DNA from: an uncultured Gammaproteobacteria bacterium
GTDB taxonomy: Bacteria; Patescibacteriota; Microgenomatia; UBA12405
Length of the DNA: 64,000 bases
Reading direction: 5' to 3'
NCBI GenBank assembly: GCA_964544275.1
Contig: CAZIZX010000004.1
Coordinates: 20,251-84,250 of the forward strand
In this document: positions 1 to 19,266 of the stretch, in pieces
Numbering within the stretch: the stretch's first letter is position 1
How the letters are laid out: each line of letters begins with the position of its first letter
Made by a program: the position numbers and the translations under genes
The notes under the pieces: model-generated
Told to the model about the DNA's origin: nothing
Databases searched by the model: none
What the model saw: only the letters and a program-made list of their open reading frames with translations

Positions 1-237
1 CTTGTTTTGTCCGTAATATTTCAGCTCACCTTTTCTATTTATTACAGTAGCGAAATCATTAATCAAAATAACAACTACTATCAAAATCAAATTAAACTTG
101 AGGAACTCAAAGAACAGCACCAAATTCTGGAAAATCGGCTTTCCCAAATTACTTCAATCAATCATCTCCAGCAGCAAGTCCTCAAACTTAATCTCGTTCC
201 CATTTCCCAACACATCAACCTAAACATCTCACCATGA
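1..237 (+). CDS. FtsL-like septum formation initiator, 5'-partial at the window edge
   Basis: The reading frame is open back to nt 1, while the listed ORF starts at TTG nt 7. The product is rich in coiled-coil heptads. The stop overlaps the ftsI start (ATGA at 234-237). It sits directly upstream of ftsI, as ftsL does in dcw clusters. Confidence 0.4.
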   Translation, partial: LVLSVIFQLTFSIYYSSEIINQNNNYYQNQIKLEELKEQHQILENRLSQITSINHLQQQVLKLNLVPISQHINLNISP

Positions 238-1883
238 ATCAGCAACGCTCCAAAATACTTCTAATCACCCTTCTTCTAATCTTCTTATCAGTCTTAGCCC
301 GCTTGTTTTACTGGCAAGTAATTATGGGTCCGCAACTCAAGGAAAAAGCTCTCTCCCAAACCTACAAACTCCAAAAAAAATTGCCCCAAAGAGGCAAAAT
401 ATTATCCAGCGATAAATATCCGCTTGTTTTAAACCAAAAAAATTATCAACTGTCAATTTACAAACCCAACTTAACCATAGACCCAGATCTGGCCATCTCC
501 AAAGTAGAAGCGGTCAAGCCGGAATTTTCTCAAACCGACAATAGTACCTCAAAGTTTTTTTTGTCTACCGAAAATCAAAAATGGCAAACATTTCTTACTC
601 TTTTTAACAAGGAAGACCTCGAGTCACTAAACAACCCTGGCTTTAGCTTTCAGGAAATAAACAAGCGACTTTATCCAGAAAATAACCTAGCTAAAGATAT
701 TTTAGGTATTGTTGGCAAAAACTCCCAGGGTAATGACATTGGTTACGGCGGCTTGGAGGGTTACTATAATAAACAACTCAAAGGTAAAACTGGCTTTTCC
801 TGGATCACCACCGATGCCACCGGCAAAACCATACTCACCAAAAAAAGTTGGCAATCTGAAAATTATGACGGGTTAGACCTCCACACCCACATAGACCGTC
901 GTGTTCAATATCAAATTGAAAATATTTTAACCCAAGGAATCGACAAGTACTCAGCTGACTCCGGTTCTATCACGGTCATGGATAGCAAGACCGGGGCTAT
1001 TATCGGCATGTCCAGCCTTACTGCCACTAGTTCGGCTACCCCCAGCGCCACCAAAAATCCGGCCATCGCCGATCTCTTTGAACCAGGATCAATTTTTAAA
1101 CCTCTGATAATGGCTATGGCCCTTGATAGTAAAAGTATTGACCCGGATTTTATTTGTAACCAGTGCGACCGACCCCGAACTATCGGCCAATACACTATAA
1201 ATAATTGGAACTTAGAAACGTATCCCAATTCCACCATCTTCGACATTATCAGAAACTCAGACAATATTGGTATGAGCTCAATAATCAATCGCTTGGGCCT
1301 GGAAAAATTTCTGTCTTATTACAAAACATTGGGACTTAACCAAAAAACAGGGATTGACCTTCAGGGTGAAGCCAAGCCTCCCATGAAAACCCACTGGCCT
1401 GAAATCGACCTGGCTACAGCTTCTTTTGGCCAAGGTTTTGCCACCACCCAAATTAATATGCTTCAATCATTCAACGTCTTGGCTAACAATGGTGTTCTGG
1501 TTCGTCCCCACGTCTTAGATTTTCTTGACGATAACGGCAAAAAAATTACCACTCCCCACAATCAAGTCGAAACTGTCTTTGATACGAAAACTACCGATCT
1601 TATCAAAGAAATACTAAAATTCTCTGTTGAGAACAGCGCCGTGTCCAAGCTAAAACCAGCTCATCTAGAAGCTTGCGCCAAAAGCGGCACGGCTCAAGTA
1701 TCAATCCAAGGAGAATACGTCGACTCATCTACTATTGCCTCATATATCGGTTTCTCTCCCTGCGACAATCCCAAATTTACCATGATCGTTACTATCAACA
1801 ACCCCAAAACATCTCCTTACGGGTCCAGTACCGCCGCCCCCATCTGGTTCGACTTGGCTTCGATCATTACCAATCTGTTATAA
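234..1883 (+). CDS. ftsI: Peptidoglycan D,D-transpeptidase FtsI (class B PBP)
   Basis: N-terminal TM helix. Transpeptidase motifs SxxK (GSIFKP), SxN (RNSDN) and KSGT are present. dcw context. Confidence 0.85.
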   Translation: MNQQRSKILLITLLLIFLSVLARLFYWQVIMGPQLKEKALSQTYKLQKKLPQRGKILSSDKYPLVLNQKNYQLSIYKPNLTIDPDLAISKVEAVKPEFSQTDNSTSKFFLSTENQKWQTFLTLFNKEDLESLNNPGFSFQEINKRLYPENNLAKDILGIVGKNSQGNDIGYGGLEGYYNKQLKGKTGFSWITTDATGKTILTKKSWQSENYDGLDLHTHIDRRVQYQIENILTQGIDKYSADSGSITVMDSKTGAIIGMSSLTATSSATPSATKNPAIADLFEPGSIFKPLIMAMALDSKSIDPDFICNQCDRPRTIGQYTINNWNLETYPNSTIFDIIRNSDNIGMSSIINRLGLEKFLSYYKTLGLNQKTGIDLQGEAKPPMKTHWPEIDLATASFGQGFATTQINMLQSFNVLANNGVLVRPHVLDFLDDNGKKITTPHNQVETVFDTKTTDLIKEILKFSVENSAVSKLKPAHLEACAKSGTAQVSIQGEYVDSSTIASYIGFSPCDNPKFTMIVTINNPKTSPYGSSTAAPIWFDLASIITNLL

Positions 1884-1884
1884 T

Positions 1885-3207
1885 TTGTTGCTTTACATGT
1901 CAACAACCAAGCTGGGCATTTTTATCCAAAAGTTCAAAAATATTTTTTGGCACCTCCCCAAAAGTATATTTTTTAGTTACCTATATTCTTTCCCTTCCAA
2001 AAGATTTATTCTTATCGGTGTCACCGGCACCGACGGCAAAACAACTACCAGTACTCTCATTTATCACACTCTCCAAAAAGCCGGCTATAACACCGGCCTG
2101 ATAACCACCATTGGCGCCAAAATCGGAGATAAAGAAATCAGCACCGGCCTCCACACCACCAGTCCCGACCCTTCAATCATTCAAAAACTCTTCCAGGATA
2201 TGGCCAAAACCGGAATTACTCACGTTGTCTGTGAGGTTACTTCTCATGCTCTTGACCAGTACCGTTTTTGGGGCTGTGATTTTGATGTTTCCCTTCTCAC
2301 CAATATTTCCCACGAACATCTAGATTACCACCAAAATATAGATAACTACATCGCTTCCAAATCACGATTGTTCCGTCAATCCCGACATTCCATTCTCAAC
2401 AAAGACGACCTATCCTATCAACCCATAAAAAACTCTGTCAAATCTACCGTTTCCACCTATAGCATTACCAGTAAATCTGATTTTCAAGCCAAAAATATCA
2501 AATTAGGCCAAAAATTAACATTCCAGGTAAACAATATCAAACTCTCTACCGACAGCAATTATTACTATCAAGTCTACAACATTACCTCTGTTCTGGCACT
2601 GATGTCTCACTTAAAAATTGATATAAATTATCTGCTCAATACCATTAAAACGTTTCCGGAAACCAAAGGCAGAAGAGAAAGAGTGGTAAACGACTCAAGC
2701 ATAAACACTATTATCGATTTTGCCCACACTCCGGCAGCTTTGAAATCGACGCTCACTTCTCTAAAAAAGACTAACAAAGGCAAACTTTTAGTCATATTCG
2801 GCGCCACTGGAGGTCGCGATCCATCCAAAAGACCACTTATGGGTCAAGTAGTCTCACAAAATTCTGACATCGCCTTTATAACCGCCGACGATACTAGGGA
2901 TGAAAATATCTTCGACATAAACAAACAAATTATTTCCGGTATCGACCCACAAAAATCAATACTAATCGACAGCAACTCTACCACTCTCAACAAAATCAAA
3001 AAAATCATCTCTGCCAACAGCAAAAAATTTATTTATTTTAGTGTTCCCAACCGCCAGGACGCTTTTGACCTAGCCGTTAAACTGGCTCAAAATAATGATA
3101 CTATCGTCGCCTGCGGCAAAGGTCATGAAACCACCATACTCCACGGTCAAACTGAATATCCCTGGTCGGAACAGGAAGCCTTTAGAACCGCTTTTAGATC
3201 AAAATAA
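1885..3207 (+). CDS. murE: Mur ligase, MurE-like (UDP-MurNAc-tripeptide synthetase)
   Basis: P-loop 'IGVTGTDGKTTT'. Mur ligase middle and C-terminal regions. The position after ftsI is typical of murE. Substrate assignment rests on position only. Confidence 0.7.
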   Translation: MLLYMSTTKLGIFIQKFKNIFWHLPKSIFFSYLYSFPSKRFILIGVTGTDGKTTTSTLIYHTLQKAGYNTGLITTIGAKIGDKEISTGLHTTSPDPSIIQKLFQDMAKTGITHVVCEVTSHALDQYRFWGCDFDVSLLTNISHEHLDYHQNIDNYIASKSRLFRQSRHSILNKDDLSYQPIKNSVKSTVSTYSITSKSDFQAKNIKLGQKLTFQVNNIKLSTDSNYYYQVYNITSVLALMSHLKIDINYLLNTIKTFPETKGRRERVVNDSSINTIIDFAHTPAALKSTLTSLKKTNKGKLLVIFGATGGRDPSKRPLMGQVVSQNSDIAFITADDTRDENIFDINKQIISGIDPQKSILIDSNSTTLNKIKKIISANSKKFIYFSVPNRQDAFDLAVKLAQNNDTIVACGKGHETTILHGQTEYPWSEQEAFRTAFRSK

Positions 3208-3828
3208 ATGATTACCTCCTTCAATATCACCACTTCTACCGACATCGAAAAAAACTACAACCTTGGATTGCTTCCTCAAAGAAACAACAAAAACCTTTTT
3301 TATCAGGAAAGTTCTGCTCGCTCAAACCTAGCCCGTTTTTCCATTAGTTCAGAAAACAGAAGGATTATTCGCAAAACTGAAAGCTATTCTTTCCAAAAAA
3401 TTCCACTAAATCAATTTTCCTATACACCCCAAATCCAAAAAACAATTAAAAGTTGGATCAAAGATTTAAGCTGGGATTTTCCTGTTGCCTCGGTCAAAAA
3501 CATTTTTACCAACCATATTTTTAACTATCTCTATATCTGGTCAGATTCGTCCGGAAAAACAATTGCCTACGCCATCTGTTTTTTTTCTGATACTATTTCC
3601 CACATTGCTTATGTTTTTTATGATCCCAAAGTATCTCACCACGACCTTCCCATCCGCCTGGTGATTCAATTTATCCAAGATAGCTTTAATTTAAAATTAA
3701 AATATTCTTATCTTGGCAGATTTTCTAAAAATACGGGCTATTACAAAAGGAACATGCCAGGTCTGGAATTCTTTGTAAATGGTAATTGGATTGAATATAA
3801 TAAAGAAAACCAACAATTACTTGCCTAA
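3208..3828 (+). CDS. ATE_C/Bpt-like aminoacyl-tRNA--protein transferase family protein (GNAT-like fold), function unknown
   Basis: The motifs 'FSISSENRRIIRK', 'SHIAYVFYDP' and 'YSYLGRF' resemble the conserved 'F-S-(K/R)SQRRVLRKN', 'S(S/A)VY-FYDP' and 'YYLGYY' blocks of arginyl/leucyl-tRNA-protein transferases (ATE1/Bpt). The comparison is from memory only. The gene is wedged between murE and the next Mur ligase. Confidence 0.4.
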   Translation: MITSFNITTSTDIEKNYNLGLLPQRNNKNLFYQESSARSNLARFSISSENRRIIRKTESYSFQKIPLNQFSYTPQIQKTIKSWIKDLSWDFPVASVKNIFTNHIFNYLYIWSDSSGKTIAYAICFFSDTISHIAYVFYDPKVSHHDLPIRLVIQFIQDSFNLKLKYSYLGRFSKNTGYYKRNMPGLEFFVNGNWIEYNKENQQLLA

Positions 3829-3833
3829 AAATC

Positions 3834-5228
3834 ATGCATATTCACATCGTCGGTATAGCCGGCACCATGACAGCACCCTTAGCTGTTGCCCTAAAAAACC
3901 AAGGTCACCATATCACCGGTTCTGACCAACAACAAATTTTTCCTCCAGTTAGCCATATTCTCAAAAAAGCCCAAATAAAGATCAATACTCAAAACATTAT
4001 CAATAGTCAAATTGATCTGTGCATTATCGGCTCGTCTTACCTCTCATTTGCCAACACCCGACAAGAATTTGATACCATCAAAAAACTAAAACTCCCCTAC
4101 ATATCAGCCACCGAATATATTGCCCAAAACGTTTGTAAAAATAATTCTATACTCGTTGCCGGAACATACGGTAAAACTACCATAACCAGCCTGATTTCTT
4201 GGATACTCATTCGCGCTCAATACCAACCCAGCTTCATGTTTGGCGGTGAACCCAAAAACAATATCCCCTCGCTTCAAATTCAAAATTCTGACTGGTCAAT
4301 AACAGAAGCCGATGAATCCATAAATGGCCTTGACCTCCAAGGGAAATTTCTTTACTACCCCCTAAAATATCTCCTGCTTACCAGTGCTGACTGGGAGCAC
4401 AAAGAATCCTACCTCAAAGAAAGTGATAATTTTTCAGCTTTTTCCCGATTAATAAAAAAAGTTCCTAAAGCTGGTTTTCTGGTTCTCAACTCTCAGGGCA
4501 CAAACATTCTTAAACTCTCAAAACTCACTCCGGCCAAAGCAATCTTCTATAATTCTAATTCCTCATCCTATTTCATCAAAAATACCACCAAATCTAACCA
4601 CCGCACCCTAATTACAATAGCCACCCCAAAAGGGGATTTAACCGTAATTAGCCGGCTCTGGGGTCAATTTAATTATGAAAATATTTTGGCGGCCGTTACC
4701 CTGACCAGCGAACTCGGGATCGACCCTTTAATTATTAAAAAAGCCATAGCCAGTTATAAAGGCATCAAAAGAAGACTTGAACTTTTAAATTTCTCCAATA
4801 ACATCCATTTTTTTGATGATTTTGCTCAATCGGCTTCCCGGATTCAATCCGTCATCGACAGCCTCAAACAAGAGTTTCCCCAATCAAACATAAAAGTATT
4901 TTACGAACCTCACGCCTCATATATGAAAAATAAAAACAGCCTACCTCAACTCAAGCCAGCTTTCAAAAATGCGTCCGAAATAATCATCGGAAAAATTAAT
5001 TACACCTCAACTAGTGATAAAATTAATCGGGTTACGGCAACGGACCTCAAAAAATCAATTGGCAACAATTCAACATATCTGCCTCTTTATGATCAGGTCT
5101 TTCGTCATTACACCCAAAACCTCAAACCCAATGACATTCTGATTCACATGAGTTCTGGCGGTATCTTAGGACTAAATACCTACAAAAAAATTATAAATTA
5201 TTTCAATAATGTCAAGATACATCGTTAA
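3834..5228 (+). CDS. murC: Mur ligase, MurC/Mpl-like (UDP-MurNAc--L-Ala ligase family)
   Basis: The N-terminus 'IHIVGIAGTMTAPLAVALKNQGHHITGSD' resembles the MurC/Mpl Rossmann start. P-loop 'VAGTYGKTT'. Overlaps murA by 20 nt. Confidence 0.65.
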   Translation: MHIHIVGIAGTMTAPLAVALKNQGHHITGSDQQQIFPPVSHILKKAQIKINTQNIINSQIDLCIIGSSYLSFANTRQEFDTIKKLKLPYISATEYIAQNVCKNNSILVAGTYGKTTITSLISWILIRAQYQPSFMFGGEPKNNIPSLQIQNSDWSITEADESINGLDLQGKFLYYPLKYLLLTSADWEHKESYLKESDNFSAFSRLIKKVPKAGFLVLNSQGTNILKLSKLTPAKAIFYNSNSSSYFIKNTTKSNHRTLITIATPKGDLTVISRLWGQFNYENILAAVTLTSELGIDPLIIKKAIASYKGIKRRLELLNFSNNIHFFDDFAQSASRIQSVIDSLKQEFPQSNIKVFYEPHASYMKNKNSLPQLKPAFKNASEIIIGKINYTSTSDKINRVTATDLKKSIGNNSTYLPLYDQVFRHYTQNLKPNDILIHMSSGGILGLNTYKKIINYFNNVKIHR

Positions 5229-6552
5229 TGGTGGCCACCCTCTAAAAGGTGAAGTTTCAATCAGAGGCGCCAAAAACGCCAGTTTTAAGCAAATAATCGC
5301 TTCCATGCTCTCCGATCAAAATACTCAACTTACTAATATTCCTCAAATTTCAGACGTTAGAATAACCCAAAGCATTGCCAGTAAACTCGGTGCCCAAATT
5401 ACCCAAACTGGAGAACATAGTATAGAAATCGTCACTCCCAAATTTATTTCAGACACCGTACCTCATGGTACTGGTCAAAAATCCCGAACCTCTTTTATGT
5501 TTGCTGCACCTCTTCTTGCCAGAAACGGCAGCGCCGTTGTTCCCTTTCCCGGAGGCGACAAATTAGGTGACAGGCCTCTGGACCGCCTGTTTGATTGTCT
5601 CGAGCAAATGAATATCAATATAGAAATAAAAGACGATTTAATTTTTTTCAAAACAGATCGTATCAAACCAACCCATTATCGCTTTCCCAAACCGTCTCAC
5701 ACTGTCACCGAAACAATTCTTATGCTCGCCGCCACCGCCAACGGTGAAACTATTTTAGATAATGCCGCTCTCGAACCTGAAATTGATGACTTAATCGACA
5801 TGCTCAATTCTATGGGAGCCAAAATTAACCGCGATAATTCAAATCCGAGCAAAATAATTATCCAAGGAGTACCTTGGCTCAATGGAACTAAACACCAGGT
5901 AATTTGTGATCGAAATGAATCGGTCACCTTCGCCTGTGCCGCTCTCGCCACCAAAGGTTCGATCAATATTCTTAAAATAGATCCTGATACTATCAAGACC
6001 TTCCTGGAAATTATCGACCAAATGGGCGCCAAAATTAACACCGGCAAAGACGAAGTTTCCGTTAGTTGGGATCAACCATTAAAATCTATATCTATCGAAA
6101 CATCTCCAGAACCCGGATTTATGACCGACTGGCAGGCAGTTTTTTCTGTTCTTCTAACTCAAGCCGTCGGCTGTAGTTCTATCATCGAAAGAGTCTTCCC
6201 CAACCGCTTCCAACACATTGAATACTTAAAACAAATGGGGGGCAAAATTAAACCGTTTAATCCCGAAAACACCCATCCTGATTTTTACTTTTTTAATCAG
6301 GAAAGTGATCGACCAGAATTTCAGCATGGTATCAAAATTTATGGACCAACCAAACTTATGCCCGACAATCTAGTGGTCAATGACCTTCGGGCCGGTGCTT
6401 CTGTAACACTTGCAGCCCTAGTAGCCTCCGGTCAATCGATAATTGATGGCGTCGAATATATTGAGAGGGGATACGAAAAACTGGCCGAAAGACTCAGCTC
6501 TCTTGGCGCCAGCATAGAATATATCAAAACCTCTTTAGTTCGACCCATTTAA
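5209..6552 (+). CDS. murA: UDP-N-acetylglucosamine 1-carboxyvinyltransferase
   Basis: The N-terminus 'IVNGGHPLKGEVSIRGAKNA' and the overall EPT-family length are MurA-like. The active-site Cys/Asp position was not checked. Confidence 0.9.
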   Translation: MSRYIVNGGHPLKGEVSIRGAKNASFKQIIASMLSDQNTQLTNIPQISDVRITQSIASKLGAQITQTGEHSIEIVTPKFISDTVPHGTGQKSRTSFMFAAPLLARNGSAVVPFPGGDKLGDRPLDRLFDCLEQMNINIEIKDDLIFFKTDRIKPTHYRFPKPSHTVTETILMLAATANGETILDNAALEPEIDDLIDMLNSMGAKINRDNSNPSKIIIQGVPWLNGTKHQVICDRNESVTFACAALATKGSINILKIDPDTIKTFLEIIDQMGAKINTGKDEVSVSWDQPLKSISIETSPEPGFMTDWQAVFSVLLTQAVGCSSIIERVFPNRFQHIEYLKQMGGKIKPFNPENTHPDFYFFNQESDRPEFQHGIKIYGPTKLMPDNLVVNDLRAGASVTLAALVASGQSIIDGVEYIERGYEKLAERLSSLGASIEYIKTSLVRPI

Positions 6553-6581
6553 CATCAATGCTATATACTCTATCTTAAGAC

Positions 6582-7616
6582 ATGACCCACTTATACTTAG
6601 GACTCCTGCTTTTCTCCTTTTTTATTACCAGCATTTTAGTAGTTCCCTTCATCAACTTACTTTACAAACTAAAATTCCAACGGCAAAAACAAAAAACACT
6701 TGATTTCCAAAACGAACGCACTCCTACTTTCGACAAGTTTCACTCATCCAAATCCGGTACACCTATTGGCGGTGGCATTCTCATCATCTGCTCAGTTTCC
6801 CTGCTCTTCTTTTTCCTCCTGCCCATCCTCAAGTTTTCCAACATATTCATCTCCAGCAATTACCAAATCAACCGAGAAATCGAAATCTTATTTTTTACCT
6901 TTATCAGTTTTGGCTTGCTTGGTTTGTACGACGACGTTAAAAAATTCTTTGATTTCAAAATTAGCGGCTTTTTTGGCCTTCGCATGCGACAAAAATTTTT
7001 ACTTCAGGTCTTTTTGGCCCTGATAATATCCTCACTCATCTACTTCAGACTCAACATAAACTTTATTTACATTCCTTTTCTTGGTCCGCTAACTTTGGGT
7101 ATATTCTTCATCCCCATATCTGTTTTCTTTATTATTGCCTTTGCTAATTTTTTTAACATTACTGACGGCCTGGACGGACTTTCGTCAGGACTTCTGATGA
7201 TAGCCCTGTTTGCCTTTTGGTTTATCTCCAATACCTCACTCGACACTCCCATTTCACTCTTTCTTGCCCTCTGGCTTGGAAGTTTAATCGCCTTTCTCTA
7301 TTTCAATGTTTACCCCGCCAGAATTTGGTTAGGAGATGTTGGCTCGCTTTCCTTCGGAGCTACTTTTGCAGTTATTGCCATTCTTTTGGGAAGAATAGTG
7401 CCCCTATTAATTGTCGGTTTCCCCTTTATTGTTGAAGGCGTAAGCAGTGCTATTCAGATTGTCAGCAAAAAATATTTCAACAAAAGAATTATTCCGGCCG
7501 CACCACTTCATTTGACCCTTCAAAAAATGGGCTGGGAGGAACCAAAAATTGTTTCCCGTGCTTGGTTGGCCGGTATCATACTGGCAATATTTGGCTTATG
7601 GTTAGGTCTAAACTAA
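6582..7616 (+). CDS. mraY: Phospho-N-acetylmuramoyl-pentapeptide transferase
   Basis: Polytopic membrane protein. Motifs 'DDVKKF', 'NITDGLDGL' and 'NVYPARIWLGDVGSL' are typical of MraY. Confidence 0.9.
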   Translation: MTHLYLGLLLFSFFITSILVVPFINLLYKLKFQRQKQKTLDFQNERTPTFDKFHSSKSGTPIGGGILIICSVSLLFFFLLPILKFSNIFISSNYQINREIEILFFTFISFGLLGLYDDVKKFFDFKISGFFGLRMRQKFLLQVFLALIISSLIYFRLNINFIYIPFLGPLTLGIFFIPISVFFIIAFANFFNITDGLDGLSSGLLMIALFAFWFISNTSLDTPISLFLALWLGSLIAFLYFNVYPARIWLGDVGSLSFGATFAVIAILLGRIVPLLIVGFPFIVEGVSSAIQIVSKKYFNKRIIPAAPLHLTLQKMGWEEPKIVSRAWLAGIILAIFGLWLGLN

Positions 7617-8269
7617 ACACCAAACTATCAAATGAAGCCGAGCGTTATCTCGGGCTCCCTTATTGGCAAAACCGTCTAATCGACGGCAAAATTACCAAAG
7701 AAGGTTTTATGGGCGGCAAGGGCAACTGGCATCAAATCAACCAGGCCACAAAAGAACTGCTCTCCAAACTACCCCACAAACCACCTTCCTCTGAAATTTA
7801 TAACCTTCAAAAAAAGAACCATATTGGCATCGACTGTTCTGGTCTAGCCTATAATTTACTCAACTTTCTCTCGCTTGAAACAAAACAAAAAAGCATTGAG
7901 GAAAAAGTTGTCGGAACAGGAGGTAAATTTGGCATCAGGCGCGTCTCCTCAAATCTATTAACTTCGCCAGCAAACTCCATCCCAGTAACTTCTTATCAAA
8001 ACATTCAGCCGGGAGATTTAATCAGACTGGAAAAAGGTAGGCATGTAATTGTTATTTTAAAAAAAGTCGGCAACACCATAAATTATATTCACAGTAGCAA
8101 CAAAACCCTGATCCGGGGAGTCCACCTTGGCACTATTAAAATAATCAACCCCAAAGCTACTCTGGAACACCAGCACTGGATCGAAACCACCAAAGACAAC
8201 CAACCTTACTCTTCCTTGTTTAATTCCCAAAATGGCGACGGTATTTTCCGTCTCAAATGTCTAAGTTAA
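7562..8269 (+). CDS. NlpC/P60-family cysteine peptidase (cell-wall hydrolase)
   Basis: Catalytic Cys in 'IGIDCSGLAYN'. A downstream 'GDLIRLEKGRHVIVIL...IHSS' His block is NlpC/P60-like. The annotated start overlaps mraY by 55 nt, so the true start may be an internal Met (e.g. MGGKG). Confidence 0.5.
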   Translation: MVGRYHTGNIWLMVRSKLNTKLSNEAERYLGLPYWQNRLIDGKITKEGFMGGKGNWHQINQATKELLSKLPHKPPSSEIYNLQKKNHIGIDCSGLAYNLLNFLSLETKQKSIEEKVVGTGGKFGIRRVSSNLLTSPANSIPVTSYQNIQPGDLIRLEKGRHVIVILKKVGNTINYIHSSNKTLIRGVHLGTIKIINPKATLEHQHWIETTKDNQPYSSLFNSQNGDGIFRLKCLS

Positions 8270-8270
8270 A

Positions 8271-8438
8271 TTACTTTTCCTCAACTAATTCTTGGTACTT
8301 CAGTGGTTCTAGCAACAGAATCTCTACCTCAGTCCCACACTCATCACATTCCACAATATCTCCTACCGCCACATCAACCCCCAGTCTCTTCTCGTGCTTA
8401 CAATCAGGGCAAACAACTATTTTACTGTCTTTATTCAT
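8271..8438 (-). CDS. Small zinc-ribbon protein, LysW/amino-group-carrier-protein-like (55 aa, absent from the ORF track because it is under 60 aa)
   Basis: Reverse-strand translation gives MNKDSKIVVCPDCKHEKRLGVDVAVGDIVECDECGTEVEILLLEPLKYQELVEEK. It has two CxxC pairs. The pattern 'V.C..CG.E.E(I/V)..L(E/D)PL' recalls LysW. The acidic C-terminus ends EEK rather than EDWGE. It lies divergent to the PLP/ATP-grasp pair. Confidence 0.5.
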   Translation of the reverse strand: MNKDSKIVVCPDCKHEKRLGVDVAVGDIVECDECGTEVEILLLEPLKYQELVEEK

Positions 8439-8479
8439 CTTTTAATGTCAAAATATATTAAGTATCACAATTATAACCC

Positions 8480-9295
8480 ATGACACCTCTAGACCACACT
8501 TCTAATCTCTACTTCAAAAGGGAAGATCTGAATCCAACCGGATCGGCCAAAGATCGGGCTATTAGTCAACAGATAGAAAACCTCGTCCGTAAAAACTTTC
8601 ACTCCGCCGTCATATCCAGCTCAGGCAATGCCGCCATTTCTGCCATCCATTACTGCCAACAATCAAATATTCCATTGACCATATTTTTGTCACCCAAAAT
8701 TGATCCCAACAAACTTAAACTTATTCAGCAAAGACACCCTAAAATTCACTTTTCTCCAAAACCTGTCAGCGACGCCTTTAAATTTTCCAAAGCTAATTCT
8801 TCCTATTATCTTCGTCAATCAACAGATCCAACCGCCCTCAAAGGTTACCAGCAAATATCCAAAGAACTAATCAGCCAATTACCCCAAATCACCAGTATCT
8901 TCATCCCGGTTGGTAGCGGCACCACCCTCCTCGGCCTAAGTCAAACTCTGCCTAACAACGTCAAAATATTTGCCGCCCAGCCAGCATCCTATTGTCCCAT
9001 TAGCTCCCTTTTTGATCGCGATTACCAACCGGAGCAATCAACTATCACCGACGCCCTCTCCGTCAAATCCCTACCGCTTAAATCAAGCGTCATAACCGCC
9101 ATCAGACAATCAAGAGGGCGGGGGATTGTGGTCCAAAATCAATCCGTTATGGACGCCCAAACCACTCTTCTTAATTTGGAAATAAACTGTTCTCCAGAAG
9201 GCGCGCTTGCTTATGCTGCTTTCCTTAAAACTCAAAAAATCAAATCAGACCCGGGTAATTACCCGGTTATTCTTATTACCGGCACCCAAAGATGA
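8480..9295 (+). CDS. PLP-dependent enzyme, fold type II (threonine synthase / Trp-synthase-beta superfamily), short form
   Basis: 'FKREDLNPTGSAKDR' matches the PLP-lysine motif of threonine synthase, cysteine synthase and Ser/Thr dehydratase. At 271 aa it is shorter than ThrC. Its stop overlaps the start of the next gene (ATGA). Confidence 0.6.
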   Translation: MTPLDHTSNLYFKREDLNPTGSAKDRAISQQIENLVRKNFHSAVISSSGNAAISAIHYCQQSNIPLTIFLSPKIDPNKLKLIQQRHPKIHFSPKPVSDAFKFSKANSSYYLRQSTDPTALKGYQQISKELISQLPQITSIFIPVGSGTTLLGLSQTLPNNVKIFAAQPASYCPISSLFDRDYQPEQSTITDALSVKSLPLKSSVITAIRQSRGRGIVVQNQSVMDAQTTLLNLEINCSPEGALAYAAFLKTQKIKSDPGNYPVILITGTQR

Positions 9296-10455
9296 CCCGA
9301 CTGATAGATCAACTCAATAACAGTCACTTTATCTTCTACTTCCTGGTAGTCGATAATTTTTTGGATATCAGCTTGCCGGAACTAAAAAACTTTCACTTAA
9401 TCTACGCTTCCAAAAATCAAAATCTAAAAAGTCTCAAAAAAAACAACTTACCCTATTTTTGCCTCGAAGAACAAGGTATAAAACTCGATACCAAAAATTC
9501 CGGCAAACTTTTATCCCACAAACTGGTCGCTGAATATATAAAAAAGACCAGCCATGCTTCCAAGCTAACCCCAGCTATCATTCCTTTCAAACCATCCGCC
9601 AAAATCGATCATCTTTGTCGACTACACAAATGGACCCTGGTCAGTAATCCCTCAAAAGTCAACCGCCAGTTAGAAGACAAAATTAAATTTCCCCAAATTT
9701 GTCAACAGTTCAACATACCCGTCCTCCCTTTTTCCATTGGCAAACTTACTCAAAAAAATTTTCAGAAACATCAGCAATTATTCGGTCCGGACCTGGTCGT
9801 CCAAACCCATTTTGGCTGGGCCGGGAATAGCACTCACTACGCCAATACCTTCAGCAAAATTTCGAAATTAATTCCAACCGATACGCTGGTCAAATTTTCT
9901 CCCCTCATGGAGGGTTACACCCTAATAAACAATTGCTGCCAGACACATCTCGGTCTAATTCAAAGCCCTCCCGGTTTTCAGTTAACCGGAATCAAATCCT
10001 TGACCCAAAACCCTTTTGCCACCGTTGGTCGGCAATGGCCCTCTACCGCCCCACCAAATATCCAAAAGCAAGTCAGAAAAATAACCAACCAATTTTCTAC
10101 TCTTTTATCAAAATATAAATACCGCGGCTTTTTTGGACTGGACTTCTTTGTCTCCAAAGACCAAGTCTACCTCCTGGAGTGCAATCCTAGGTTAACCGCC
10201 TCTTTTTCCTTCTATACCCAATTAGAAAAAAACGCCAAAATTACACCTTTATTCTATTACCATCTAGCTGAGTTTATTAGCCAAAATTATAAATTTAATT
10301 ATACTTTACAAAAATACCGTTTTAATAATACCTCTATCGTTGGGACCGAACTGACACCCAAAAACAAAAATAACGTTACTATCCAAAAAATTCATATACC
10401 ATCAACTGTTCATTCGGTTCAGAATATTCCGAATCTCTCCATTAATCTCCCTTGA
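9292..10455 (+). CDS. ATP-grasp ligase (Ddl/CPSase-like C-terminal ATP-binding block), function unknown
   Basis: The C-terminal 'YRGFFGLDFFVSKDQVYLLECNPRLTASFSF' matches the ATP-grasp E-x-N-(P) Mg/ATP block ('R.DFF...YLNEIN..PG' in Ddl, 'EMNPR' in CPSase-like enzymes). The N-terminal half is divergent. It occupies the murD/ddl position in the dcw cluster. Confidence 0.55.
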   Translation: MTRLIDQLNNSHFIFYFLVVDNFLDISLPELKNFHLIYASKNQNLKSLKKNNLPYFCLEEQGIKLDTKNSGKLLSHKLVAEYIKKTSHASKLTPAIIPFKPSAKIDHLCRLHKWTLVSNPSKVNRQLEDKIKFPQICQQFNIPVLPFSIGKLTQKNFQKHQQLFGPDLVVQTHFGWAGNSTHYANTFSKISKLIPTDTLVKFSPLMEGYTLINNCCQTHLGLIQSPPGFQLTGIKSLTQNPFATVGRQWPSTAPPNIQKQVRKITNQFSTLLSKYKYRGFFGLDFFVSKDQVYLLECNPRLTASFSFYTQLEKNAKITPLFYYHLAEFISQNYKFNYTLQKYRFNNTSIVGTELTPKNKNNVTIQKIHIPSTVHSVQNIPNLSINLP

Positions 10456-11630
10456 AAATGAACAAGTCTCAAAATAGATATATTCTTCCCCTGGTTACTT
10501 TTTCCTTGGTTTTAATTGGCTTAATTTTTATATCAGTTTCGTCTCTCTCCGAAGCCTCTTCCACTACCGGCAATAAATTTTTCTTTATCGAAAAGCAACT
10601 AATTTGGCTGGGATTAGGCCTAATCTGCTTTTATTTTTTCTCCAAAATCAAAATATCCACCATCCAAAAAATGTCTTTCCCTCTATACATTGTCTCGATA
10701 ATAACCTTGGTTCTGGTTCTCATTCCTACTCTGGGAAATCAGGCATTAGGTGCCAGACGTTGGCTGGATTTAGGCATTATCGGCATTCAGCCCTCCGAAA
10801 TTGTTAAATTCACCTCCATAATCTACTTCTCCTTCCTTTTCTCAAAAGAAAACAAAAGAAACATGAAAAACCTGATTATCTACTTGGCTATTCCTTTCAT
10901 TCTAATTCTTCTTCAGCCCAATTTAAGCACAGCCATCCTGATTTCTACCATCGTCATTTCCGTCTATTATCTGGCCGGCGGCGAAATTATGTCCCTCTTT
11001 CTTCTCTGCATTTCCACCGCTTTTTTGAGCCTATTATTAATATTCACCTCCTCCTACCGGCTTGCCCGATTTAGAACTTTAATCAACCCCCAGGAAAACA
11101 CCACTTCCGCCTCCTATCACAGCAATCAAATAATTTTAGCCCTCGCCTCAGGAGGCTTTTTTGGTAAAGGTGTTGCCAACTCAGATCAAAAATACCGCTA
11201 TATTCCCAAAGTTTCTACCGACTCGATTCTGGCGGTTATCGGAGAAGAGACCGGCTTTATCGGCACCGGTTTAATCGTTCTAATTTACCTCTACCTGATC
11301 ACCTACCTTTTTAAATTAGCCCAAAAAATCACCGACCCGTTCCAGTCTCTCTTCGTCAGTAGTACCGCCTGCTGGATCGGTTATCAATGTTTAATTAACA
11401 TTTCAGCTATCGTCGCCATCATCCCTCTAACCGGCGTTCCTCTTCCTTTCATCTCCTATGGCGGATCTTCTCTCATCACTCTACTTTCAGCCATCGGTCT
11501 GGTTAGAAATATCGAAAAAAACAATGCCAAGCTGATATACTCAATTAGTGAACCAGAAAGTAAAGACCATCCTGATAACCGGCACCCACATTACCCCGGC
11601 CGTCGAGCTCATCAACCAACTCAAAAATGA
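10452..11630 (+). CDS. ftsW: SEDS-family peptidoglycan glycosyltransferase FtsW
   Basis: About 10 TM helices. Motifs 'ARRWLDLGIIGIQPSE' and 'IPKVSTDSILAVIGEETGFIG' are SEDS-like. Sits between the mur genes and murG. Confidence 0.85.
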   Translation: MKMNKSQNRYILPLVTFSLVLIGLIFISVSSLSEASSTTGNKFFFIEKQLIWLGLGLICFYFFSKIKISTIQKMSFPLYIVSIITLVLVLIPTLGNQALGARRWLDLGIIGIQPSEIVKFTSIIYFSFLFSKENKRNMKNLIIYLAIPFILILLQPNLSTAILISTIVISVYYLAGGEIMSLFLLCISTAFLSLLLIFTSSYRLARFRTLINPQENTTSASYHSNQIILALASGGFFGKGVANSDQKYRYIPKVSTDSILAVIGEETGFIGTGLIVLIYLYLITYLFKLAQKITDPFQSLFVSSTACWIGYQCLINISAIVAIIPLTGVPLPFISYGGSSLITLLSAIGLVRNIEKNNAKLIYSISEPESKDHPDNRHPHYPGRRAHQPTQK

Positions 11631-12636
11631 TCCTCTTGTCAAATGGAATATCGTTTATATTGGACGCAAACACAACTCCAGCACCTCAGACATTCCTTCG
11701 ATAGAATCAAAACTAATACCATCTCTTGGTGTCAAATTCTTTGGTATCAACTGTGGCAAACTTGACCGAAGATGGTTTCCCAACACCATCAAAGGCATCC
11801 CTCAGACATGTCGCGCCTTAACTGCCTCGCTTGAAATTCTCAAAAAAACCCAGCCTGATATCGTAATTTCCTTCGGAGGATATGTTTCAGTTCCTGTAAT
11901 CATCGCCTCCGAAATTAGCCACATCCCGTCCATCACCCATGAACAAACCCTCACCAACAGTCTATCCACTCGGATCAATAGCTACTTTACCGACAAGATA
12001 GCCTTGTCGTTTAACAATAAAAAACAGATCGGGTCGTTACCCGGAAACAAGGTCGTCGTCACCGGAAACCTTTTACGTTCTCAGATCTACACTACCAAGT
12101 CGAAACTTTTCTCCAAAATCAAGACCAAACTCCCAATTATTTATGTCACCGCCGGCAACCAGGGCTCTCAAACTATCAACCAGACTATTTCCCACCTCTT
12201 ACCTCAACTCAAAAATTTTTTGATCATCCACCCCGTCGGTCAACAGGACTATTCCCAAATTAAAAAATTATCGTCAAAATATCCCAATTATCTGGTATAT
12301 GAATACATTGGTACCGACGACATCGGTTGGGTACTCAATAAAGCCCAAATAATTATTAGTCGTTCCGGTGCCAACACCAGCCAGGAAATCGTCGCCTTAA
12401 ACAAAAAATCTATCCTTATCCCTCTTCCTTTTAGTCAGCAGGACGAACAACTCAAAAACGCCCAATGGGTCCAAGATAAACTCCCTCACCACACCATTAT
12501 TCTCGATCAATCGCAACTTAATCCGGAAAGTCTATTAACAGCCATCAATAACCTCTTAGAGAAACCGGAGCTCAAAAAGGATAAAATAAACCATGGCAAC
12601 CAAAAATTGGTCCAAGTCATTCACGATCTTATATAA
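11548..12636 (+). CDS. murG: UDP-GlcNAc:lipid I GlcNAc transferase (GT28)
   Basis: N-terminal 'ILITGTHITPAV' glycine-rich loop. GT28 C-terminal domain 'SRSGANTSQEIVALNKKSILIP'. GTG start, and the gene overlaps ftsW by 83 nt. Confidence 0.8.
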   Translation: MNQKVKTILITGTHITPAVELINQLKNDPLVKWNIVYIGRKHNSSTSDIPSIESKLIPSLGVKFFGINCGKLDRRWFPNTIKGIPQTCRALTASLEILKKTQPDIVISFGGYVSVPVIIASEISHIPSITHEQTLTNSLSTRINSYFTDKIALSFNNKKQIGSLPGNKVVVTGNLLRSQIYTTKSKLFSKIKTKLPIIYVTAGNQGSQTINQTISHLLPQLKNFLIIHPVGQQDYSQIKKLSSKYPNYLVYEYIGTDDIGWVLNKAQIIISRSGANTSQEIVALNKKSILIPLPFSQQDEQLKNAQWVQDKLPHHTIILDQSQLNPESLLTAINNLLEKPELKKDKINHGNQKLVQVIHDLI

Positions 12637-15460: not shown

Positions 15461-18271
15461 ATGAAAAATAAAAAGTTTTTCAACGATATTCCAGACAATT
15501 TCAATTTTGCCGAAAATGAGAAATTTCTCCTTGATTGGTGGGATAAAAATGATCTCATCAGAAGTTACCTAAATAAGAATGCGAATTCCGACAAAAATTT
15601 CTCTTTTATCGACGGCCCCATTACAGCCAATGGTCCAATGGGAGTCCACCATGCCCGAGGTAGAACCCTGAAAGACGTTTTTCAAAGATACAAAAACTCC
15701 CAAGGATACAGGCAACGCTTCCAAAACGGCTTCGACTGCCAAGGCCTGTGGGTCGAGGTGGAGGTCGAAAAAGACGCTGGTTTTAACTCCAAAAAAGACA
15801 TCCAAACTTTCGGACTGGATAACTTTACCCAAGCCTGTCTCGCCCGGGTAGAAAAATTCTCCAACCTTCAAACCAATCAATCAAAACGTCTCGGTATGTT
15901 TATGGACTGGGAAAACTCCTATTACACAAATTCAAGAACCAACAATCTCTACATCTGGCATTTTCTCAAAAAAGTCCACTCAAACGGCTGGCTGATCAAG
16001 AAAAAATCTGCCGCCACTTGGTGTCCCCGCTGTGAAACCGGCCTTTCCCAACACGAACAGGCCGACGGGTACCAGGAAATTAGCGATATTTCTGTTTACA
16101 CCAAATTCAAACTAAAAGATTCCGCCAACGAATATGTCCTTGTTTGGACCACCACGCCCTGGACCCTTTCGGCTAATGTTTTATTGGCTATAAATACGAA
16201 TTTTCAATACGTCAAAGTCCATCAAGATGATAACTACCTTTACTTAGCCAAGGAAGCCGCAGACAGGCTGGGCTTGACCGATTATGAAATAATCGATCCG
16301 TCAATATTAATTAATCGTTCTTATGAATCGCTCTTTGATATTCCCGCTCAAGAAGGCATCAGCCACTACATCACCCAATGGGATGCAGTTGACCCCATAG
16401 AAGGCACCGGCGTGGTCCACATCGCTCCCGGCTGTGGTCAGGAAGATTTCGAACTCGGCCAAAAACTTAACGCCGACATCATAGCTCCAATAAACGAAAG
16501 AGGCTATTTTATTGATGGTTTTGGTCAACTGACCGGCCAATACGCTCATGATGTTGCCCCACTCGTGTTTACCTATCTCAAACAATCGGACTCCTTTTTT
16601 AAAACAGAAAAAATTACTCACCGCTATCCTCACTGCTGGAGATGTAAAACTAAATGTCTTTTCCGGCTTGAAGATAGCTGGTTTATAAAATCAGACGAGA
16701 TCCGGCCATTGCTAAAACAAGCTGCTAGCACCGTCAAGTGGCACCCAAAATATTCCGGCCGTCGTATGCAGAATTGGCTCGACACCATGGAAGATTGGAT
16801 GATAAATCGGAAACGGTTTTATGGTTTAGCCTTGCCTTTCTACCAATGTACCCACTGTCACCAACTTACTGTAATCGGAAGTCTCGAGGAGCTGAAGTCC
16901 TTGAGTATCAACCCCCAACTCGTTGACCAACTTCAAAGCCTCCACCGGCCCTGGATTGACAAAATTGAAATCCGCTGTCCCCAATGTCAACAAACAGTCA
17001 GGCGTATTCCTGACGTCGGTGATGTCTGGTTGGATGCTGGCGTCGTCCCGTTCTCCACTTTAAAATATCTCGAGGACAAAGAGTATTGGCAGCAATGGTT
17101 TCCGGCAGAATTGGTCTTAGAAATGATTGAGCAAGTCAGATTGTGGTTCTATTCCATGCTGTTCTTCAGTGTTACTCTCGAGAACACCGCTCCATACCAA
17201 AACGTCGTCGCTCACGGAGAAGTCCGTGATGAACGCGGGGACAGAATGAGCAAAACCAAAAAAAACGGCATCCCTTACGACGAAGCCGTTGAAAAAATGA
17301 CAGCCGACGCCATGCGTTGGTTATACTGTCAACAAAAACATTTCATTTCGGTAAATTTTGGTTACAACATCGCCGACAATGTCAAACGAAGCTTCATTCT
17401 AATCCTCTGGAATACCTATCGGTTTTTTATCCAACATGCCAACGCCATCAACTGGTCACCGTCCTCAGAAACTTTAGATATTACCCAAATCACCAATCCA
17501 CTTGACCGTTGGATTCTTTCCCGGCTCCACACCGTTATCGCCGCCGCCACTAACCATCTGGATAAATTCGACACACCCAAAGCCACTACTAACATTGAAA
17601 AACTGGTTGAAGACCTGTCTACCTGGTATGTCAGGCGCTCCCGTGAGCGTGACGATAATTTGGGAGTTCTCCATGAAGTTTTAACCACAATTTCCAAGCT
17701 AATCGCTCCCTTTATGCCTTTCATGGCTGAGACCATGTATCAAAACCTTGTGGGTACTTCTGATTCAGCCAAAACCACCTCTGTCCACCTGCAAAATTGG
17801 CCAACAGCCCAAAATAATCTGGTGGACGAAAAGCTAAATCTCGAAATGGACCTGGTTCGGGATATCTCCCGCCAAATCCACGGTATTCGCCAGAAAGAAG
17901 CTATTAAAGTCCGCCAACCACTCAGCCAAGCCACAGTAAATATTAACCAATCTTCGATATCACCTTCCCTGATAAACATTCTCAAAGAAGAAACCAATGT
18001 CAAAAACATAATCTGGGAAAAAAGTACTTCACCTACCCCTCAAGTCAGTTTGGACACCAAACTCACTCCCGACTTAATCAGTGAAGGAGAGTACCGGGAT
18101 TTTACCCGCTCAGTTCAAATATTGAGAAAAGAAATGGGACTCAATCTCCAAGATAAAATCAAAATATTTGCCCCTTCCTGGCCAAAAAATTTTGAGGAAA
18201 ATATCAAGTTAAAAACCTTGGCCGTGTCGATCGAAACATCTGACAACCTCAAAATTGAAAAAGTCAGTTAA
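15461..18271 (+). CDS. ileS: Isoleucyl-tRNA synthetase
   Basis: HIGH-region 'PITANGPMGVHHARG', 'KMSKTKKN' (KMSKS) and a CP1 editing region. A zinc-knuckle-like WCPRCETG motif is present. 936 aa. Confidence 0.9.
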   Translation: MKNKKFFNDIPDNFNFAENEKFLLDWWDKNDLIRSYLNKNANSDKNFSFIDGPITANGPMGVHHARGRTLKDVFQRYKNSQGYRQRFQNGFDCQGLWVEVEVEKDAGFNSKKDIQTFGLDNFTQACLARVEKFSNLQTNQSKRLGMFMDWENSYYTNSRTNNLYIWHFLKKVHSNGWLIKKKSAATWCPRCETGLSQHEQADGYQEISDISVYTKFKLKDSANEYVLVWTTTPWTLSANVLLAINTNFQYVKVHQDDNYLYLAKEAADRLGLTDYEIIDPSILINRSYESLFDIPAQEGISHYITQWDAVDPIEGTGVVHIAPGCGQEDFELGQKLNADIIAPINERGYFIDGFGQLTGQYAHDVAPLVFTYLKQSDSFFKTEKITHRYPHCWRCKTKCLFRLEDSWFIKSDEIRPLLKQAASTVKWHPKYSGRRMQNWLDTMEDWMINRKRFYGLALPFYQCTHCHQLTVIGSLEELKSLSINPQLVDQLQSLHRPWIDKIEIRCPQCQQTVRRIPDVGDVWLDAGVVPFSTLKYLEDKEYWQQWFPAELVLEMIEQVRLWFYSMLFFSVTLENTAPYQNVVAHGEVRDERGDRMSKTKKNGIPYDEAVEKMTADAMRWLYCQQKHFISVNFGYNIADNVKRSFILILWNTYRFFIQHANAINWSPSSETLDITQITNPLDRWILSRLHTVIAAATNHLDKFDTPKATTNIEKLVEDLSTWYVRRSRERDDNLGVLHEVLTTISKLIAPFMPFMAETMYQNLVGTSDSAKTTSVHLQNWPTAQNNLVDEKLNLEMDLVRDISRQIHGIRQKEAIKVRQPLSQATVNINQSSISPSLINILKEETNVKNIIWEKSTSPTPQVSLDTKLTPDLISEGEYRDFTRSVQILRKEMGLNLQDKIKIFAPSWPKNFEENIKLKTLAVSIETSDNLKIEKVS

Positions 18272-19266
18272 TGCAAAAAAACTACGGTCTCCCCATAACC
18301 ATCAGTCTATTCCTCCTCTTTTCCATCAATATTCTGATGGTCAGTTCTCTTGCTCCACACATCTTACTCAGGCAATTATTTGCCTGGTTTATCGGTTTTA
18401 TGTTGTTTCTATTCGGTAGGCAGCTAATTCCTAAACAACTGGCACCCCAGAAAAATCTGATCCTAGCCTTCTCCTGTCTGCTTCTTCTGACTCCAATTGT
18501 TATGAACAATATAACCAGAGGTTCCAGGCGATGGATTGATATCGGTCCACTTTCAATTCAGCCCACCGAAGTCGTTAAGCCCTTACTTATGGTTTTCCTA
18601 GCCACTTCCTCAACACCCCTGCTTCACTTGATTCCAGTTTCGATAATCGCTATCCAACCGGACCTGGGAAGTGCCCTGTCCACGCTCTTTTTAATAACTC
18701 CCATAGTTTTGTACAGCAAAAAACTCCTGAAGCTGACTCTCGTAGGGTTGTTTGCCCTAATCGCCCTATCACCCATAATTTGGAGAAACGTACTCCATGA
18801 CTACCAAAAAAACAGAATTATTTATTTCTTAGATCCGACCTCCGATCCACTTGGAAAAGGATACAACATAATTCAATCAAAAATTGCCATTGGTTCGGGT
18901 GGATTATTTGGCAAAGGTTATCGTAAGGGGAGCCAGGGCCAGCTACTTTTCCTTCCCGAAAAGCATACTGACTTTATGCTGGCCGCTACGGGTGAGGAGT
19001 TAGGTTTCTTCGGAATAACCTTAATAATATCATCCTACTTCCTGCTTATTAGTTCACTTTTCAAAAAAGCTTATTCTACCTCAGACCGACCTCTGTTTAT
19101 TTTTACCCTAGGCATTGCTTTCCAGATTTGGATGCAGGCATTTGTTAATATCGGCATGAACATTGGCATCCTTCCGGTAACCGGAACCCCCCTGCCCTTT
19201 CTATCGGTTGGAGGATCTTCAATTATGTCGCTGTTATTCTCTCTGGGAATCGTCTTTTCTTCCTGA
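18271..19266 (+). CDS. Second SEDS-family protein (RodA/FtsW-like)
   Basis: Polytopic. Motifs 'GSRRWIDIGPLSIQPTE', 'LPEKHTDFMLAATGEELGF' and 'PVTGTPLPFLSVGGSS' are SEDS-like. Confidence 0.8.
   Translation: MQKNYGLPITISLFLLFSINILMVSSLAPHILLRQLFAWFIGFMLFLFGRQLIPKQLAPQKNLILAFSCLLLLTPIVMNNITRGSRRWIDIGPLSIQPTEVVKPLLMVFLATSSTPLLHLIPVSIIAIQPDLGSALSTLFLITPIVLYSKKLLKLTLVGLFALIALSPIIWRNVLHDYQKNRIIYFLDPTSDPLGKGYNIIQSKIAIGSGGLFGKGYRKGSQGQLLFLPEKHTDFMLAATGEELGFFGITLIISSYFLLISSLFKKAYSTSDRPLFIFTLGIAFQIWMQAFVNIGMNIGILPVTGTPLPFLSVGGSSIMSLLFSLGIVFSS

Follow-up and report, generated by a model that had tools for sequence, protein, structure and literature searches.

A putative aminoacyl-tRNA-dependent transferase encoded between Mur ligases in the cell-wall gene clusters of Patescibacteria

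Almost all bacteria with a wall are taken to use the cytoplasmic Mur pathway (MurA to MurF), and the tRNA-dependent steps of peptidoglycan synthesis known to us are limited to Fem-type cross-bridges. The Fem enzymes (FemX, FemAB and MurM; PF02388) add amino acids from aminoacyl-tRNA to peptidoglycan precursors, and the ATE1 and Bpt transferases (ATE_N PF04376 plus ATE_C PF04377; EC 2.3.2.8/2.3.2.29) use a protein as acceptor. Here we describe X, a protein of 206 residues encoded on the forward strand (3208..3828, ATG start) of a 64-kb stretch of DNA, referred to below as the window, whose host is an ultra-small bacterium of the Patescibacteria. The gene lies in a dcw cluster (for division and the cell wall), between a shortened MurE-type ligase (MurE') and a MurC/Mpl-family ligase with Mpl-like signatures (Mpl'). 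We propose that X is a tRNA-dependent transferase that acts with Mpl' in stem-peptide synthesis and not in protein N-degron tagging, a reading that we place slightly on the probable side. More tentatively, and with considerable doubt, we raise the possibility that in a large part of the Patescibacteria the MurC and MurD steps are replaced, the stem peptide being built free in the cytoplasm with a tRNA-dependent first bond.

X differs from ATE1 and Bpt in lacking the zinc-finger cysteines and the acidic arginine-binding pocket and in scoring under the Pfam threshold; relative to Bpt, its N-terminus is some 45 residues shorter. Its gene belongs to a cell-wall cluster, in some genomes X is fused to a Mur ligase, and its acceptor is likely to be a stem peptide and not a protein. 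With the Fem enzymes, X shares the GNAT superfamily fold and an equivalent of the catalytic lysine (K305 in FemX). In the Fem enzymes, however, two GNAT lobes are present, in many cases together with a coiled coil, and the chain is roughly 330–420 residues long, whereas X consists of a single GNAT domain and gives no match to PF02388. The branch that Fem enzymes introduce is on the position-3 residue; X may instead form a backbone bond. The aminoacyl-phosphatidylglycerol (aa-PG) synthase domain of MprF (DUF2156) is membrane-anchored, comprises a tandem GNAT, has a lipid acceptor and shows no sequence match to X.

On the ligase side, Mpl (TIGR01081) is similar to Mpl' in its insertion after EADE and in the motifs GSD..YPP(M/V)S, FDDFA and MSSGG. 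Mpl' nevertheless falls below the mpl cut-off, and the murC hidden Markov model (HMM) scores higher. Recycling operons of the YkfC type resemble the X clusters in that a cytoplasmic NlpC/P60 gene accompanies the ligase. A precedent for a wall peptide that is built off the muramyl sugar and attached later is the assembly of the pseudomurein peptide by methanogen pMurC/D/E. That pathway, unlike the model considered here, belongs to archaea and begins with UDP-Glu, and no tRNA-dependent step is known in it.

Relationship of X to aminoacyl-tRNA transferases

An earlier note on this DNA had picked out the open reading frame (ORF) by three blocks resembling ATE/Bpt motifs, and these are present as quoted: FSISSENRRIIRK at residues 44–56, SHIAYVFYDP at 131–140 and YSYLGRF at 166–172. 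Of the two profile families it named, ATE_C is recovered below threshold (E-value 2.9e-4; 21.9 bits against a gathering score of 25), with relatives of X passing, whereas Leu_Phe_trans (PF03588) gives no match at E<=1. Among 64 diverse family members, 59 match ATE_C (E<=0.01), the best at 3e-10, and P0128 exceeds the cut-off with 30.5 bits. Five NCBIfam arginyltransferase (Bpt) models match X with E-values down to 3.6e-7, at about 30 bits compared with cut-offs of 170–267. One of them, NF002346, aligns residues 36–196 to profile positions 80–244 of 247. Searches of X with the Pfam models for ATE_N and FemAB (PF02388) gave no match, and the two-lobed tandem-GNAT architecture is absent.

The AlphaFold2 model of X has a mean predicted local distance difference test (pLDDT) score of 88.8 and a predicted template-modelling (pTM) score of 0.87. 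A Foldseek comparison with the PDB places human, yeast and K. lactis ATE1 first, with E-values of 9e-9 to 4e-7 and query-normalised TM-scores of 0.63–0.72, followed by MprF/aa-PG synthases and Weissella FemX. The GNAT-like fold that the earlier note had expected is thus borne out by the model, and the likeness to ATE1 extends to the overall fold, the N-terminal part included. At the sequence level, X or a 34-member profile retrieved nothing useful from the PDB; a 64-member profile reaches yeast ATE1 there, weakly, over residues 234–307. We regard X as a putative minimal aminoacyl-tRNA transferase of the ATE/Bpt branch, composed of a single GNAT domain and a small N-terminal sheet, without a zinc finger.

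The residues that X shares with this branch include a Tyr-Lys pair. Y179-K180 of X align to Y303-K304 of yeast ATE1 and are both present in all 64 members. In Ate1 both residues are essential; the pair is equivalent to F304-K305 of FemX, K304 corresponding to the catalytic Lys305 there and to the lysines of aa-PG synthases (PMC9351520). The same study describes a basic helix that is common to aminoacyl-tRNA transferases and missing in other GNATs (PMC9351520). In X, an invariant SSENRRI(L/I)RK block, predicted to be helical (residues 48–56), corresponds to this helix in position and charge. Besides the Tyr-Lys pair, R38, R52, G20, G170 and W194 are invariant in the 64 members, and R25 is invariant in the X subfamily only (38/64 in the wider family). 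The GLLPQRN segment of X presumably sits at the place of the GxRRSG motif. The β4–α3 loop of X is DPKVSHHDLP (139–148), with a family consensus of P...H.NLP. It contains no glycine, and the Q/R-x-x-G-x-G/A motif that binds the pyrophosphate of coenzyme A (CoA) is therefore absent.

X starts at approximately position 45 of the Bpt profile, so that the first 45 or so Bpt residues are missing. The Cys4 zinc finger of ATE_N is formed in K. lactis Ate1 (klAte1) by C23, C26, C95 and C96 (PMC9351520). None of these four cysteines is conserved in X, where a 34-member alignment shows no conserved cysteine in residues 1–60 and C124 as the sole invariant one. The donor pocket differs as well: S255 of klAte1 is replaced by His132, S273 by Leu/Met151, E277 by a small residue at 155 and Y289 by a Cys, Ser or hydrophobic residue at 167. 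As none of the four positions is acidic, arginine is an unlikely donor, and a small or hydrophobic amino acid is plausible from the aligned residues. Arginine transfer as carried out by ATE1 was considered and rejected, the position aligned to the essential Glu277 being Phe, Val or Ala.

A few genes upstream of MurE', a glycine-tRNA ligase (NF003211, 552 bits) is found at 3830..5149 of locus L005, just upstream of where the window starts. The synteny there, RecO, aminoacyl-tRNA synthetase, an unknown gene, (MraZ) and MraW, is shared by L001, L003, L007, L089 and L100. The conserved Gly-tRNA ligase is a weak hint at Gly-tRNA as the donor, although the synteny may just as well be a coincidence. 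The window has six tRNA genes, all beyond 21 kb and none within the cluster or next to it, and thus there is no clue to a dedicated isoacceptor.

X is a real, conserved gene and not a chance ORF, and its family is found in Patescibacteria alone. A homology search returned 497 protein clusters with approximately 60–67% identity to X and lengths of 196–210 residues, whose named members are assigned to the Patescibacteria group or to Candidatus Shapirobacteria. With each GTDB species represented by a single genome, a scan identified a relative in 312 genomes, and an alignment of 34 relatives contains 53 invariant columns. Only 244 of 1.84 billion representative proteins match the X profile at E<=1e-3, indicating a small and sharply delimited family. 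Its distant members measure 215–280 residues, and among their hosts are Nomurabacteria, the Microgenomates group and Shapirobacteria. Public annotations of the relatives read 'hypothetical protein' or, in IMG, 'arginyl-tRNA--protein-N-Asp/Glu arginylyltransferase'.

Gene order and the partner ligases

The stop codon of MurE' (TAA, 3205–3207) directly abuts the ATG of X, and Mpl' starts 5 bases past the X stop codon, which makes the trio a compact segment of an operon. We analysed 88 Shapirobacteria-type loci of the X subfamily by local ORF calling and phmmer, covering about 10 kb on either side of X, plus the 64-kb window. All 88 keep the order MurE'-X-Mpl'. Contig permitting, they share the wider order FtsL, FtsI, MurE, X, MurC/Mpl-type ligase, (MurA), MraY, P60-like protein, PALP enzyme, ATP-grasp ligase and FtsW. 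In the window, the cluster comprises:

7..237, FtsL-like protein
234..1883, + strand, FtsI, a class B penicillin-binding protein (Pfam Transpeptidase and PBP_dimer), the upstream boundary of the conserved block
1885..3207, + strand, MurE', a MurE-type ligase without the N-terminal UDP-binding domain (TIGR01085, 348 bits)
3208..3828, + strand, X, a short ATE/Bpt-like GNAT-fold protein without a zinc finger, putative aminoacyl-tRNA-dependent transferase
3834..5228, + strand, Mpl', a MurC/Mpl-family ligase with Mpl-like signatures (murC 234 bits, mpl 177 bits)
5209..6552, + strand, MurA, UDP-GlcNAc enolpyruvyl transferase (Pfam EPSP_synthase, E 5.7e-77), conserved in position
6582..7616, + strand, MraY (Pfam Glycos_transf_4; E. 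coli MraY 106 bits)
7562..8269, + strand, cysteine peptidase-like protein of NlpC/P60 fold, no evident signal peptide
8271..8438, - strand, LysW-like zinc-ribbon protein of 55 residues (Pfam Zn_ribbon_LysW)
8480..9295, + strand, pyridoxal-phosphate enzyme of threonine-synthase/SbnA/serine-dehydratase fold (PALP), 271 residues (NCBIfam threonine synthase models)
9292..10455, + strand, ATP-grasp ligase, not a recognisable Ddl (NCBIfam PRK06524, 92 bits)
10452..11630, + strand, FtsW (TIGR02614, 318 bits)
11548..12636, + strand, MurG (E. coli MurG 62 bits; Pfam Glyco_transf_28 in the matching locus L005)

Past MurG, the window continues with an FtsQ-like protein, FtsA and FtsZ.

The placement of X between murE and murC, as described in the earlier note, is correct for the upstream gene (TIGR01085, 348 bits). 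The name 'murC' is only approximately right, because the downstream ligase scores below both the murC and the mpl cut-offs and is Mpl-like. The arrangement itself is conserved, as the 88 loci show, and recurs in distant lineages. MurE' also lies directly upstream of X in L092, L096, L099, L100 and L101, and the family members P0124 and P0128 sit after a short MurE. In a Nomurabacteria genome (L099), MurE', X and the ligase are found with MurF, a true FemAB gene, MurB, MurA and two MraY-type genes nearby. Other gene orders occur. P0144 is encoded in the order MurB (- strand), ATP-grasp, P60-like, MraY, X, ligase, NUDIX, LysW-like (- strand) and PALP, and P0157 comes after the ligase, with overlapping stop and start codons. 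P0122 (645 residues), from one lineage, is a fusion of X, a Pro/Ser-rich linker and a MurC/Mpl-type ligase; three independent contigs, which stem from different samples, encode it within the same dcw context. A MurC/Mpl-type ligase adjoins X in every locus examined. Since this pairing is kept in varied gene orders, the MurC/Mpl-type ligase, not MurE, is the constant partner of X. In all examined lineages with enough flanking DNA, X and Mpl' are accompanied by the P60-like gene, whose product matches γ-D-Glu-diamino-acid endopeptidases in fold. P0182 (809 residues) represents a second, different fusion partner in the family: its X-like domain (about 31–217) is followed by a long C-terminal region that by eye looks like an enzyme of the PEP-utilising/pyruvate-phosphate-dikinase type.

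Mpl' and its X-linked counterparts score under both curated NCBIfam cut-offs, with 234–263 bits for murC (cut-off 335) and 177–216 bits for mpl (cut-off 389). Using phmmer, the window ligase matches E. coli Mpl with 143 bits and E. coli MurC with 87 bits; the corresponding values for other X-linked ligases are 184/114, 161/133 and 170/90. The closest PDB sequence match of Mpl' is Mpl of Psychrobacter arcticus (3hn7). After EADE, Mpl carries the insertion YDCAFFDKRSKF, compared with SING-LDLQGKF in the window, YPTSNTDEKSKF in L095 and SDAS-----F in MurC. Mpl' further has the Mpl-like positions GSD..(Y/F)PP(M/V)S, FDDFA, EPHxSxM and MSSGG, which are listed as Mpl-specific in the structural study of Mpl, an enzyme that joins peptide to UDP-MurNAc in recycling (PMC3060825). 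By sequence, the X-linked ligase looks more like Mpl than like MurC. The core dcw cluster encodes it and shows no other ligase of the MurC/Mpl type, which suggests a biosynthetic and not a recycling role.

The match of MurE' to TIGR01085 starts at profile position 75 (70–75 across the loci checked), and BLASTP aligns residues 27–430 with residues 95–484 of E. coli MurE. Pfam recognises Mur_ligase_M and Mur_ligase_C only. In all X-linked loci checked, MurE lacks the N-terminal UDP-binding domain, and a recognisable N-terminal Mur_ligase domain is kept only by the Mpl-like ligase. Placed on the alignment with E. coli MurE, MurE' presumably keeps the carbamylated-lysine position and the arginine of the DNPR motif.

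Three lineages provide more complete clusters. In L100 (239-kb contig) the order is MraZ, MraW, FtsL, FtsI, MurE', X, Mpl', MurB, MurA, canonical Ddl, MurF, MraY and P60-like. In L101 it is MraZ, MraW, FtsL, FtsI, MurA, MurE', X, Mpl', MurB, Alr, Ddl, MurF, P60-like and MraY, and L099 holds MurF, MurE', X, Mpl', MurB, MurA and MraY. Neither a MurD nor a second MurC is present in these three clusters, and E. coli MurD as a query gave only weak secondary matches to other ligases. The entire window contains two Mur-family ligases only. By extension, MurD may be absent from the whole genomes.

Proposed function and competing explanations

Taken together, the gene context favours the tRNA-dependent step in wall-precursor synthesis that the earlier note had suggested, and this step may not be a side-chain branch of the FemX type. 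For the donor, the acceptor and the order of steps, we infer the following scheme. MurE', devoid of its UDP-binding domain, would couple D-Glu and the diamino acid while neither is attached to the nucleotide. X would move the position-1 amino acid from tRNA to the α-amino group of Glu, either free D-Glu or γ-D-Glu-diamino acid; the residue is probably small (Ala or Gly), as the side-chain pocket is non-acidic. ATE1 and Bpt recognise acceptors of this type, with an acidic residue such as Glu at the N-terminus. The first peptide bond (L-Xaa to D-Glu) would be the product of X, and Mpl' would attach the resulting di- or tripeptide to UDP-MurNAc, X and Mpl' together standing in for MurC and MurD. 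A direct copy of MurD chemistry by X was rejected. Aminoacyl-tRNA donates an activated carboxyl and the acceptor must be a free amine, which UDP-MurNAc-L-Ala does not offer; X could thus not perform the MurD reaction.

This specific bypass of MurC and MurD would account jointly for the fusion and adjacency of X and Mpl', the Mpl-like features of the ligase, the domain loss in MurE', the missing MurD and MurC and the companion cytoplasmic NlpC/P60 enzyme. We nevertheless advance it as a possibility with the odds against it. Several observations weigh against our proposal. The ATE_C score of X itself lies under the gathering score, and generic GNAT models also match the family (Acetyltransf_6 in 26/64 relatives, Acetyltransf_1 in 9/64). 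The transferase role is deduced from homology, a predicted fold, conserved residues and gene order. For Arg80 of klAte1, which recognises the acidic acceptor, no equivalent was mapped in X, and we know of no ATE/Bpt enzyme that uses D-Glu as acceptor. The murC model outscores the mpl model (TIGR01081) for Mpl' (234–263 versus 177–216 bits), so that Mpl' could be an ordinary divergent MurC. The MurF of L100 (15464..16669) also lacks about 80 N-terminal residues, and the loss of the N-terminal domain in MurE' may therefore reflect general gene shrinkage in place of off-nucleotide chemistry. Finally, genes for MurD and MurC could be located in other parts of the genome, beyond the flanks of about 10 kb and the 64-kb window.

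Some of these points suit a different tRNA-dependent role, in which X is an analogue of FemX/MurM and adds a side-chain (cross-bridge) residue from aminoacyl-tRNA to the free amine of the position-3 diamino acid. The substrate could be UDP-MurNAc-peptide, lipid II or free peptide, with Mpl' as the MurC of the host and MurD encoded elsewhere. The common superfamily fold and catalytic lysine agree with such a role, as do the location of X in the dcw cluster beside MurE, the installer of the acceptor residue, and the rank of murC as the best NCBIfam HMM for the partner ligase. We still consider it unlikely, because the invariant and even fused partner is a MurC/Mpl-type ligase, not MurE or MurF. 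It would also leave both the missing MurD in three otherwise complete clusters and the Mpl-type features of the ligase unexplained. In L099, moreover, a genuine FemAB-family gene already sits beside the triad, and the role of X in that cluster can hence not simply be that of the Fem enzyme.

An acyl-CoA-dependent GNAT would N-acylate a precursor amine, of a diamino acid or an amino sugar, from acetyl-CoA or another acyl-CoA and not from tRNA. The ranking of the structural matches, the invariant Tyr-Lys pair with its basic helix and the absent CoA loop all speak against it, and we give it very little credence. Least probable in our view is a Bpt-like N-degron enzyme that aminoacylates a protein N-terminus, for example that of a division protein, the dcw location then reflecting regulation and not chemistry. 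The earlier note had offered N-terminal tagging of this kind as its second option. It draws on the nearest homologues of X in sequence and structure, which are protein N-terminal transferases, and on the arginylyltransferase labels of relatives in IMG. X, however, has lost the ATE_N features, namely the first 45 or so Bpt residues and the four zinc-finger cysteines, and belongs to a family that is restricted to Patescibacteria and distinct from canonical Bpt (244 matches among 1.84 billion representatives). Its adjacency to Mur ligases is kept across deep Patescibacteria lineages, to the point of covalent fusion.

A full-text search of a literature library found nothing linking ATE/Bpt-like or arginyltransferase-like genes to Patescibacteria wall clusters, dcw clusters or Mur ligases, which agrees with the remark in the earlier note that Bpt-family proteins are not described as dcw members. 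Read conservatively, X adds to the cell-wall gene cluster a member that spans the Patescibacteria and has gone unreported. If the bypass of MurC and MurD were true, tRNA would be a substrate of core peptidoglycan backbone synthesis and not of cross-bridges alone, and a very large and poorly understood bacterial radiation would follow a different route of stem-peptide construction. The reach of the ATE/Bpt family would then grow from protein tagging to small-molecule biosynthesis, with implications for the ways in which ultra-small symbionts acquire or salvage building blocks of their walls. MurE', X and Mpl' constitute a directly testable three-enzyme system, open to expression in E. coli.

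Neighbouring genes and database records

The LysW-like protein (8271..8438, - strand) contains CPDC...ECxECG and ends in ...PLKY.EL(I/V)EEK, a C-terminus conserved without change in more than 60 Shapirobacteria loci; in L093, a distant homologue has the end ...DEGK. LysW carrier proteins end in EDWGE; the EEK end is thus a C-terminal tag unlike that of LysW. In the Shapirobacteria loci, its gene is always flanked by the P60-like gene on one side and the PALP and ATP-grasp genes on the other. The PALP enzyme of the window (8480..9295) reaches 75–102 bits with threonine synthase models of NCBIfam, every one below its cut-off, and E. coli DdlB does not match the ATP-grasp ligase (9292..10455) at E<=1e-3. 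A canonical Ddl is encoded in L100 and L101, with Alr in L101, whereas the window, L093 and L099 carry PALP and a non-Ddl ATP-grasp ligase, accompanied in the window and L093 by the LysW-like protein. The two sets never occur together within reach in any examined locus. The PALP and ATP-grasp set may serve as another way of making the C-terminal dipeptide, or else an unusual amino acid.

Directly after ftsZ, the window encodes an isoleucine-tRNA ligase and a second SEDS protein (RodA-like, 331 residues) within 15461..19266, which extends the division and wall cluster. GC skew takes strongly negative values (-0.09 to -0.46) throughout positions 1..12000, where the main genes all lie on the + strand, so that the coding strand is markedly C-rich. 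Many public records of metagenome-assembled genomes with the Shapirobacteria-type cluster are titled 'uncultured Gammaproteobacteria bacterium' (binchicken; L009, L013, L015-L017, L064 and others), and one is titled 'Candidatus Methanoperedens sp.'. These titles look like taxonomic mislabels or mis-binned contigs.

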